In this document: one piece after another, positions 30,991 through 32,596 of the stretch
Layout of the letters: every line of letters begins with the position of its first letter
Numbering within the stretch: the first letter of the stretch is position 1
Assembly: GCF_965641715.1 (NCBI RefSeq)
Contig: NZ_OZ282453.1
From: Escherichia coli
Lineage (GTDB): Bacteria; Pseudomonadota; Gammaproteobacteria; Enterobacterales; Enterobacteriaceae
DNA length: 64,000 nt
Direction: 5' to 3' (one strand)
Made by a program: the position numbers and the translations under genes
Notes under the pieces: generated by a model
The model's input: the letters and a program-made list of their open reading frames with translations, nothing else
The model's database searches: none
What the model was told of the DNA's origin: nothing

Positions 30991-31019
30991 TACATAGCTA
31001 AACACGTACATTCAACTAC

Positions 31020-32440
31020 CTGTTAATTACAGGACATAAACAGGTTAGTACCTATTCAATTTAAAGGCATTTCCCCAAGTATCTAAGCAATTCTACACAG
31101 ATTCTATGCAGTATCGGTATAGTCCCTTTTTATCATAACTTATTGAAATATATAAAGAATCTGTGAAGTATCTTTTCAGGGTAAACTGTATCGTGTTAGT
31201 CGTCCCTCTCCAGACACTACATATAGTGCTATATACAGGGTTATATAGCGATGTATAGATGCTTGGTCACCATACGTTACAGTTGCAAGAGATAACAATC
31301 AGCTATGTGAAAGTTAGGAAGTGATGGTTATAGTTGATTCGGTTAGTTCTAGGAATCAACCTCATAGTTACCTTGTCAAATCTTCGTAGTTCCTCTTAAA
31401 AAATCACTTACAGACACCTTAATATCTATACAGATTTCATGTAGAACACGATTAGTGCGTAAAAAAGCTATTATGTTAAAAACGCACTGTATACGTATCA
31501 GTACTGATTTATAAGGGTTTTGTGTATTGGCTGATAAGAGGCTATACAGCACCTTGAGAGCATGTCTTGTAAGTCATTGATACATAAGGTCACAGAAGTT
31601 TGTAGCTGTTACAGAGAAAACTGGATAGGACTTCACAGGACTATAAAATGTTACAGCAATTGATAGGTGAAATCTTCTTGATAGATGCTGTGAAGTGTGA
31701 TGAAGGTTTCTTGAGGTGGAGTTAACAGATGCTATGAAGAAAGTCAATAGATATTTTAAAATTCTGCAAAGGGGGCCACATAGCTGGTGTGACGGGTACT
31801 TAGCAGGTATAGACCTGTGATAGATATTTTCGAAGATTCGGGGAAGATGAGATTCAAAGAGGACTAGTCATTTTTTATAAAAATTTTCAGAGTCTGAAAA
31901 GTTACTGCACAGATTTTGCACAATCCTACCAAGCCTCATAGTTGATTCGATTAGAAGCTAATCTCATAGAAAGCTCTGTAGCGAGTTTTAACCCCATTTT
32001 TAGGGGTAACCTGTAGGGATGTACCACCCACCTTAAAATAAAGGGGTAAAATCGCTTAGAATGCGTTACAGAGCGTCTGAGAAGCCATATTCACAGATTT
32101 TACTAAAACCTCAGACTTCTAAGTGGTCTTTTTAACAGGAGGGTTCTTTCTCATGTATCACCCTCTCTTCCCGCCAAGTAAGCTACACAGACCTAGAGAA
32201 TATGCCTTCACAGCATCTATATCAGGTCAGATTTAGAGGTCTTGATAGAATCTTCAAAGGTACTTGACAGATAACTATGAAGTTGTTAGGAAGGGGTGTT
32301 TAACGGGGGAAGAGATACGATATAACCCGAAGGGGAGAGTATCATCTTAACAGTGATTGTAAGAGTAAAACTGAAAAGATACTTAACAGAACTACCAAGA
32401 GGGAGCGATAAGACCAGAGGTAGTGACCTGTTAAACAGTT
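31020..32440. repeat. array of more than 25 degenerate short motifs (YTNACAG / CTGTGAAG in both orientations) in a region lacking any ORF of 60 aa or more
   Basis: Examples: ctacacaga 31093, ctgtgaag 31161, ttacaga 31408, tatacaga 31427, gttacagag 31608, cttcacagga 31631, ctgtgaag 31688, ttacagag 32066, ttcacagatt 32090, ctacacag 32184, cttgacag 32266, cttaacaga 32382. Confidence 0.6.
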
Positions 32441-32596
32441 CGTTTCAAAGCTCTTAAGAGTCTGTTAAGTAAGGTCATGTGAACAATCATATCATTTTGT
32501 CAATGCTTTTGTCTTTGACCTAAATCAATAAAATGTATCGTTTGATGTGCTTTTAAACAAAATAGTTAAAAATCTTTTTAGAGGGGCGCTTCGCTT

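Follow-up and report, generated by a model that had tools for sequence, protein, structure and literature searches.

Satellites of bacteriophages are known to mimic the packaging sites of their helpers, as is the case for P4 with its P2-type cos site, for the cos or pac sites of phage-inducible chromosomal islands (PICI) and Staphylococcus aureus pathogenicity islands (SaPI), and for the pac site of the PICI-like element (PLE) of Vibrio. PLE also has a sizeable non-coding region with repeats, as does the island described below. Short-repeat arrays adjoin the terminal repeats of T7-type phages, and T5 carries a repeat-rich, gene-free 'injection stop' region in its terminal repeat; the function of these arrays is only partly understood. 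Tandem head-to-tail arrays at one-turn spacing are furthermore found in the pho boxes bound by PhoB, in the parC iterons of plasmid R1 and in the iterons of plasmid origins. For PLE, packaging is treated in a preprint (bioRxiv 10.1101/2024.04.22.590561). Here we analyse an array of short phased sites, referred to as block 1, which forms the left end of an integrative island inserted in wrbA of Escherichia coli and is built around a sequence related to the genome end of virulent Felix O1-type phages (Felixounaviruses). All coordinates refer to the window, which is the whole stretch of 64,000 nucleotides that was analysed (contig NZ_OZ282453.1).

Like P4, PICI/SaPI and PLE, the island is a small integrative element that combines an integrase and hijack-type genes with a cis sequence resembling the DNA end of a helper. 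Unlike in these systems, the presumed helper belongs to the virulent myoviruses whose direct terminal repeats are short, and a satellite of such a helper was not found in the literature that we searched. Moreover, where cos and pac sites are compact, the putative mimic on the island is an array of phased short repeats at least 1.6 kb long, for which packaging would be the role. A close counterpart is PLE of Vibrio cholerae, the satellite of the lytic myovirus ICP1: it too resides in the chromosome, is of comparable size, uses a large serine recombinase as integrase and has a virulent myovirus as presumed partner. The present island differs from it in its tape-measure and distal-tail cargo, in its host clade and in its motif. 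PLE-type genes were not found in the island by PHROG, NCBIfam, Pfam and PADLOC profile searches, which did not include a direct comparison to PLE proteins.

Like the T7 and T5 regions, the array consists of short repeats that are imperfect and lie, outside genes, within or beside the direct terminal repeats of virulent phages; its repeat units are different and unrelated in sequence, and it is present both on a chromosomal island and in a phage. With pho boxes, parC and origin iterons it shares head-to-tail units every 10-11 bp, which by analogy would imply that proteins bind cooperatively along one side of the helix. In contrast to those systems, the island has no PhoB, ParR or Rep-type gene, the motif is a distinct one, and the copies are far more numerous, extending over kilobases and, less densely, over the whole phage genome. 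Mimicry of packaging sites by satellites is thus already known; what is new here is the virulent partner with short terminal repeats, the kilobase-scale phased arrays around a repeat-boundary core, and the island family itself.

Block 1 is a non-coding array of phased CT-N4-AG sites

The array and its parts are as follows.

30992..32596, plus strand: block 1, an array of CT-N4-AG sites free of open reading frames (ORFs), defined by motif counts and an alignment of 12 homologs
30992-31016, within block 1: attachment site (att) arm specific to the integrase, as the alignment of 12 homologs diverges by att site to the left of about 31017
31531..31573: phased run of CTGATAAG, CTATACAG, CTTGAGAG and CTTGTAAG, with spacings of 11, 11 and 13 nt
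31093/31104, 31161/31172, 31621/31631, 31677/31688, 31894/31905, 32241-32282, 32371-32399 and 32453/32462: starts of other phased runs

An earlier reading of the window from its letters, made without database searches (hereafter the sequence-only reading), had described this region as an AT-rich block of about 1.6 kb without any ORF of 60 amino acids (aa) or more. Both descriptions hold: the G+C content of block 1 is 37%, compared with about 55% in the DNA leftward, and the longest ORFs within 30991-32596 measure 58 aa (31376-31552) and 57 aa (31574-31747), both on the minus strand. No genome annotation places a gene in block 1. Out of 14 ORFs of at least 25 aa, only two, of 31 and 33 aa, are intact in most homologs, and both fall within the most conserved DNA stretch of the block. 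When ORFs of this size were followed across homologs, no conserved reading frames that could account for block 1 were found, and small ORFs do not explain the region. We are highly confident that block 1 is non-coding, cis-acting DNA.

The tetranucleotide ACAG is present 23 times in block 1, a number that none of 1000 dinucleotide-preserving shuffles attained (9.1 expected; z = 5.0), and CTGT is present 11 times (5.5 expected from shuffles of the same type). The motif enrichment, which had earlier been judged by rough estimate to lie well above chance, is therefore real and also strand-biased. In the alignment of 12 homologous islands, ACAG sites on the plus strand have a mean identity of 0.924 compared with 0.842 for the background, and 11 of the 23 are invariant, against an expected 22%; an additional conservation of CTGT sites over the block background was not seen in the same alignment.

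The consensus surrounding the 23 ACAG sites, C-T-T-N-A-C-A-G, represents one version of CT-N4-AG, an 8-mer with palindromic ends. This more general motif occurs 38 times in block 1 (8.3 ± 2.7 expected; z = 11.1; reached in 0 of 300 shuffles), corresponding to a density of 23.7 per kb versus 2.4 per kb in the E. coli flanks, and counts for CT-N3-AG and CT-N5-AG are equal to or below expectation. When every XY-Nk-ZW pair with k = 2-7 was scanned without bias, CT-N4-AG ranked first in block 1 and in two divergent islands. Hence, the motif array noticed by the sequence-only reading is real, while its unit, given there as YTNACAG/CTGTGAAG, had to be redefined as CT-N4-AG. A matrix derived solely from the TGTTA sites of the phage described below under-describes the island sites, and the more general motif was adopted for this reason.

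The sites are helically phased. Twelve of the 37 spacings between successive CT-N4-AG sites measure 10-12 nt, nine of them exactly 11 nt (random placement, 2.1 ± 1.4; 12 was reached in 0 of 5000 trials), and pair distances within block 1 peak at 11, about 22, 33-35, 44-46 and 55-58 nt. Aligned sites in homologs retain the CT and AG ends while the interior varies (CTTGTAAG/CTTCTAAG/CTTATAAG; CTTCAAAG/CTACCAAG/CTGTAAAG). Palindromic ends, fixed spacing and 11 bp phasing therefore argue for DNA sites that are read on one face of the helix.

Other site types were considered for the motif and dropped. LexA boxes (CTGT-N8-ACAG) have the wrong spacing, DnaA boxes are represented by just a few near-matches containing CACAG, and CsrA GGA sites coincide with 3 of the 23 ACAG sites. 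The units are not near-identical, unlike CRISPR repeats or the RNA repeats of type III antitoxins, and the likeness of TTACAG to a splice site was set aside as coincidence. Scans with promoter and terminator consensus sequences gave no excess over shuffles.

The core of block 1 is homologous to the genome end of Felix O1-type phages

We conclude with high confidence that block 1 is built around a core of about 160 bp which shares ancestry with the end of the genome in virulent Felix O1-type phages.

31750..31905, plus strand: core homologous to the Felixounavirus repeat boundary (blastn against phage positions 71516-71671)

The Felixounavirus JohannRWettstein (MZ501086) has a gap of 1.66 kb without annotated gene at 70492-72155. 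Within this gap, CT-N4-AG is found 60 times (10.9 expected; z = 15.9), and 36 TGTTA/TGTAA sites lie nearly all in one orientation with a spacing of mostly exactly 11 nt. A direct terminal repeat of 613 bp has been determined by PhageTerm for the Felix O1-like phage vB_EcoM-Ro111lw (PMC6454146). In the record of this phage, MH571750, the first and the last 613 nt are the same, and their position in JohannRWettstein is 70977-71566. As the repeat maps inside the gap, the gap contains both ends of the virion DNA. Records H12, BPS15Q2, GE_vB_7A and REP10 start at the same position as MH571750, and for one of these four the termini are stated to have been determined (PMC11737134). In the paper on the Felix O1 genome, terminal repeats were inferred to be short and the gene-free gap was left undiscussed (PMC3185647).

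The main phage arrays are located inside the terminal repeat, and the island-homologous core crosses its right boundary. In a search restricted to the gap, island positions 31750-31905 aligned with phage positions 71516-71671 at 69.6% identity over 161 nt (E = 1.8e-11). Searched alone against 50,697 phage records, the core had matches in 32 records, all of them Felix O1-type phages and always in unannotated DNA, with a lowest E of 2e-7. Whole block 1 gave no blastn match in the phage collection at E up to 1e-5, and the core homology was detected only when the search space was small or the query was the 181 nt core. At its end the phage has GGGCTACC^AAGCAGATATAC, and the island counterpart, GGGTACTTAGCAGGTATAG, lies at about 31795-31812; in island L026 the flank of the cut site, TACCAAGCAGATATACATC, is almost identical to that of the phage. 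An A+T-rich sequence, TTTTATAAAAATTTT, with a GACTAGTC palindrome at about 31856-31886 is conserved across all aligned islands and phages. Both core and motif are retained in divergent islands in which the protein encoded by ORF236 (see below) is only 41% and 28% identical.

Enrichment of the motif extends beyond the phage gap. In the remainder of this one phage genome, CT-N4-AG occurs 777 times versus 405 expected, a 1.92-fold excess that is the strongest of the 256 XY-N4-ZW pairs, and the phage-wide level is 9.1 per kb, so that the density in block 1 is 2.6 times higher. Within large phage genes we counted 274 copies, compared with 106-198 for the other spacings N1-N9, with enrichment on both strands. 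Spacings in the phage genome peak at 11-13, 21-24 and 32-36 nt, and these peaks are missing from control spacings; a comparable excess or spacing signal was not present in the E. coli flanks. The phage-wide excess suggests that some protein reads the phage chromosome along its entire length.

The island has the anatomy of a Felixounavirus satellite

The island and its assigned genes are listed below.

30992..42539: integrative island of about 11.55 kb, inserted near codon 8 of wrbA, with junctions read directly
32597..33265, plus strand: N6-adenine DNA methyltransferase (PHROG 111, TIGR01712), variable cargo between blocks 1 and 2
36708-37418: ORF236, labelled 'transposase' by NCBI, without Pfam, PHROG or NCBIfam match
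37735..39864, plus strand: tape-measure protein gene (PHROG 4036, E = 1.7e-82; Pfam TMP_3 in homologs)
40000..40794, plus strand: distal-tail-protein (Dit)-like gene, 264 aa (Pfam Dit_like PF21821 in homologs)
40814..42457, minus strand: large serine recombinase, the integrase (PHROG 95, E = 2.3e-78; Pfam Resolvase, Recombinase and Zn_ribbon_recom in homologs)

A 7 bp sequence, GTGCTTT, is present at either junction (30985-30991 and 42533-42539). To the left, positions 30780-30990, which hold the promoter and first codons of wrbA, are conserved at 99% identity or more in nearly all of 5426 complete E. coli genomes, and block 1 starts exactly at the left junction and is the left end of the island. 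To the right, the wrbA frame is restored with a new N-terminus at 42509. The block pointed out by the sequence-only reading is therefore present as described, and its placement is corrected in that it belongs to a mobile island and not to the core genome. As for wrbA itself, the insertion swaps its first codons: the reading frame 42509-43114 is intact, its N-terminus is island-encoded and its upstream signals are presumably new, and the gene may still be expressed.

Related islands occupy three att sites in E. coli genomes, namely wrbA, a site adjoining yciI/tonB and a site in yecE, and are also found in Salmonella enterica. Block 1 is matched in 548 of the 5426 complete E. coli genomes, or about a tenth, at up to four places per genome. 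In the searchable literature, whose coverage is incomplete, we did not find a description of this island family or of a Felix O1-associated satellite; one apparent match for a Felix O1 satellite used the word 'satellite' in an unrelated sense.

The genes are arranged in the order N6-adenine methyltransferase, orphan ORFs and an HNH nuclease, tape-measure gene, distal-tail-like gene and, on the opposite strand, serine recombinase. Two of them connect the island to Felixounaviruses. Residues 1 to about 498 of the tape-measure protein are about 31% identical to the Felixounavirus tape-measure protein (tblastn; 70% query coverage), and the 264 aa Dit-like protein is 75% identical to the product of the Felixounavirus gene placed after the tape-measure gene; at the DNA level, 40036-40554 (519 nt) is 92% identical to JohannRWettstein. 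No homologs of further island proteins were found in this phage beyond the two tail genes. With its large serine integrase, several att sites and own versions of the tape-measure and distal-tail proteins, the island has, as we conclude with high confidence, the anatomy of a satellite of Felixounaviruses. It is a mobile, integrase-bearing element linked to a phage (recombinase, 7 bp repeat, three att sites, two hosts, tail genes), and at 31750-31905, corresponding to the right repeat boundary, it resembles the region at which the helper terminase would recognise and cut DNA.

Profile searches with all island proteins returned matches only for the methyltransferase, the HNH nuclease, the tape-measure protein, the Dit-like protein and the serine integrase. 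Markers of known satellites (psu, delta, sid and alpha of P4; alpA, primase-rep and terS/capsid genes of PICI; repA and others of PLE) were absent from these searches, Pfam gave no functional assignment for four of the island proteins, and PADLOC, run on ten of them, identified no defence model beyond the orphan methyltransferase. For ORF236, the AlphaFold model (predicted local distance difference test score, 81) shows a long coiled coil, for which a fold search against the PDB gave no significant neighbour, and its family comprises 3125 sequence clusters with few divergent members. Since the protein lacks a profile match and its predicted coiled coil lacks a PDB neighbour, the label 'transposase' looks unfounded.

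The methyltransferase is not a constant part of the family, as some homologs lack it at the position corresponding to 32597-33265 or carry different cargo there. The junction between blocks 1 and 2 is a cargo hotspot, occupied in different islands by the methyltransferase, by an AP2-HNH endonuclease, by a small resolvase/invertase or by an ORF of 221 aa (L004, L005, L008, L009, L023-L028). Peptide-pattern scans for the methyltransferase in one-genome-per-species contigs and in IMG/VR returned nothing.

Block 1 as a putative copy of a helper genome end

Taken together, these data lead us to favour, with moderate confidence, a reading in which block 1 consists of arrayed protein-binding sites and is a copy or an imitation of the helper's genome end, with terminase recognition and packaging as its most likely use. 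The imitation probably serves to have the island handled as phage DNA. In the proposed mechanism, the phased CT-N4-AG sites at the concatemer junction would normally be covered by a phage protein, which after infection would also assemble on the island array; candidates for this protein are the recognition subunit of the terminase or another end-binding protein. The terminase would then recognise or cut the repeat-boundary-like core near 31800, and island DNA would be treated as phage DNA and packaged in competition with the phage. It is from the comparison of island and phage that we infer protein binding, the phage origin of the binder, packaging as the outcome and dependence on a helper.

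The sequence-only reading had proposed an array of protein-binding sites, and this proposal is supported by the CT-N4-AG motif, the 11 bp runs, the retention of the site ends and the homology to the phage gap, which all point to putative binding. That reading had left the choice between an iteron, partition or packaging array undecided. The comparison with the phage favours the packaging or genome-end version; genes for ParA/ParB or ParM/ParR were not found among the island proteins by profile searches, which speaks against partition, and the partner phage is virulent. Likewise, the earlier view that sequence could not decide between a binding array and a structured RNA is superseded in so far as the comparative evidence favours the array.

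Several observations weigh against the proposed packaging role. Unlike P4, PICI/SaPI and PLE, the island contains no terminase small subunit, capsid or capsid-size gene and no replication gene that was recognisable with PHROGs, NCBIfam, Pfam, PADLOC or fold search, and with 11.5 kb it is no simple fraction of the packaged phage genome of about 87.7 kb. The left terminus of the phage repeat has weak matches in the island, with scores of 33-36 versus 76 at the right boundary, and the better one, at 32522-32587, lies on the other strand. Most island sites, when viewed from the shared core, are oriented opposite to the main phage arrays and are more scattered than the phage sites, and the matrix of phage TGTTA sites is only moderately enriched in the island (12 matches versus 4.1 ± 1.9). 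Finally, the gap in the phage may itself be used for replication, end protection or ejection instead of packaging.

A wider and clearly more tentative proposal is that CT-N4-AG constitutes a genome-wide address code of Felix O1-type phages, which a phage protein would read every 11-12 bp and which, densest at the ends, would mark phage DNA for packaging, condensation or protection. An undescribed satellite family, carried by roughly 10% of E. coli genomes and also by Salmonella, would then hold a concentrated copy of this code together with the repeat boundary and pass as phage DNA.

If the packaging reading is correct, the island would represent an enterobacterial counterpart of the Vibrio PLE/ICP1 pair, that is, a common island specialised on virulent Felix O1-type phages, which are widely used in Salmonella typing, biocontrol and therapy. 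It would offer a candidate explanation for differences between strains in their susceptibility to these phages, as well as a testable cis element consisting of the core near 31800 and the CT-N4-AG arrays. It would also provide a first handle on how DNA ends are marked and processed in short-terminal-repeat phages of this group, and the helically phased signature throughout the phage could point to a new DNA-recognition protein.

Alternative explanations for the array

The alternative that survives best, although we consider it rather unlikely, is a replication origin, in which the CT-N4-AG sites would act as iterons for an initiator of the phage or the island, the A+T-rich TTTTATAAAAATTTT would be the unwinding element, and the island would be amplified after infection. 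Satellites such as SaPI, P4 and PLE commonly need amplification, and PLE is amplified by its own RepA and ori. Head-to-tail repeats at helical spacing do lie beside an A+T-rich core, in the island as well as in the phage, and the core is the most conserved part among divergent islands. However, this conserved core coincides exactly with the terminal-repeat boundary, which is a packaging landmark, and 38 sites over 1.6 kb, together with two more blocks, far exceed the known iteron origins. Searches with PHROGs, NCBIfam and Pfam found no Rep, primase or helicase in the island, where an initiator was not recognisable either, and the only homologs of its proteins in the phage are the tail genes; any initiator may be encoded by the phage. 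Roles in replication and in packaging are mutually compatible.

Less likely again is a decoy or defence function, in which the array would titrate a phage DNA-binding protein (the terminase or an end-binding factor) and the variant tail proteins would sabotage assembly, so that the host population is protected and transfer is unnecessary. Such a function would suit an array that shares its motif and its core with the genome end of the phage, and an island in which two tail-assembly proteins are encoded in diverged form and the left part is a hotspot of variable cargo. Interference with tail assembly has been described as a defence strategy (PMC11364771). On the other hand, a single chromosomal copy makes a weak sink, and PADLOC defence models are unmatched save for the orphan methyltransferase. 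Furthermore, a near-identical island occurs in E. coli as well as in Salmonella and occupies several att sites, which argues for an efficient horizontal transfer that a pure decoy does not explain.

A third possibility is that block 1 gives rise to one or more structured non-coding RNAs from the plus strand, with ACAG as a recurrent RNA motif. Three hairpin features are relevant here.

31973..32085, plus strand: hairpin module of 113 nt closed by GCTCTGTAGCG/CGTTACAGAGC (fold z = -4.2; alignment-fold z = -5.3)
31330..31363: mini hairpin of about 34 nt, TAGTTGATTCGGTTAGTTCTAGGAATCAACCTCA (alignment-fold z = -7.4 on the minus strand)
32311..32346: small covarying hairpin, GATAC...GTATC in some islands and GAACC...GGTTC in others, with three covarying pairs

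Compatible with an RNA are the strand bias of ACAG (23 versus 11), the conservation of its plus-strand version only, and compensatory changes or strong consensus folds at 32314-32343, at 31905-31922, in the 113 nt module and in the mini hairpin. However, thermodynamic folding in 120 nt windows and consensus folding gave signals that are local and confined to the hairpin modules, and in 15 of 21 alignment windows |z| stayed below 2 on both strands in comparison with column shuffles. The structured modules moreover come and go among homologs and are hence a dispensable rather than a constant part. In the covariance analysis across homologs that the sequence-only reading had recommended, the small hairpin has its three covarying pairs and most windows are without consensus structure; a brute-force covariation scan was noisy, as one homolog carries a non-homologous replacement. 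Rfam (Rfam 15, including large RNAs) gave no match in block 1, whether the gathering score was applied or E was relaxed to 5, and a scan for tRNA and tmRNA was negative. Palindromic ends, fixed spacing and 11 bp phasing are properties of DNA, and CT-N4-AG is enriched on both strands within the protein-coding genes of the phage. The long structured RNA that had been offered as one of two options is therefore disfavoured, and we regard it as quite improbable.

The least credible explanation, to which we attach very little probability, is that block 1 is decayed coding sequence or neutral filler that inherited the motif from phage composition and has no present function: CT-N4-AG is about twice as frequent as expected phage-wide, so that phage-derived DNA would show an excess, and indels, duplications and cargo insertions are frequent in block 1, but the motif there is strictly phased and, at 23.7 per kb, 2.6 times as dense as the phage-wide 9.1 per kb, its ends are kept while interiors vary, ACAG is conserved above background, the block is retained in islands diverged to 28% protein identity, and reading frames are not conserved.

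Blocks 2 and 3 and mobile hairpin modules

Two further ORF-poor stretches of the island contain the motif.

33266..34299: block 2, the second ORF-poor stretch, with the motif chiefly in reverse orientation (CTGTNAAG, five copies)
36122..36707: block 3, the third ORF-free stretch, with phage-like phased sites (TGTTACCAATCTGTTAAAAATCTGT)

Both blocks are connected to the same Felixounavirus gap by shorter matches of phased sites; block 3 matches phage positions 71374-71398 at 88% over 25 nt (E = 2.6e-4). Block 2 contains a 94 nt tandem duplication at 33575-33751, the copies of which are 90% identical and each include CTGTGAAG. At about 34187-34251, just upstream of ORF185, block 2 also has a strong pair of back-to-back divergent promoter-like sites (11/12 and 10/12 matches), and relatives have an annotated minus-strand ORF of 58-62 aa within this block. 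This region looks like a regulatory switch of the island.

The hairpin modules of block 1 vary in position and number. The 113 nt module has an inverted paralog on the minus strand at 35643-35755, between the HNH gene and ORF109, with 72% identity, and in homolog L007 the module is replaced by unrelated sequence. The mini hairpin is present, absent or duplicated among collinear homologs and has related copies at 31938-31965 and 34099-34153; in some homologs an inverted copy is inserted near 31816, a behaviour like that of a miniature mobile insertion. The inner AACCCGAAGGGG of the hairpin at 32311-32346 resembles phage positions 70707-70721, a short match to the phage gap. A unit of about 190 nt that starts with CTTTTTAACAGGAGGG and corresponds to window positions 32127-32317 is tandemly duplicated in two homologs (L011, 13574-13760, and L012), indicating that block 1 grows through duplication of modules. 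Elsewhere in the window, Rfam matches to Ysr251, naRNA4 and the cspA thermoregulator (10670-10863, 47721-47799 and 58482-58904) are unrelated to block 1.

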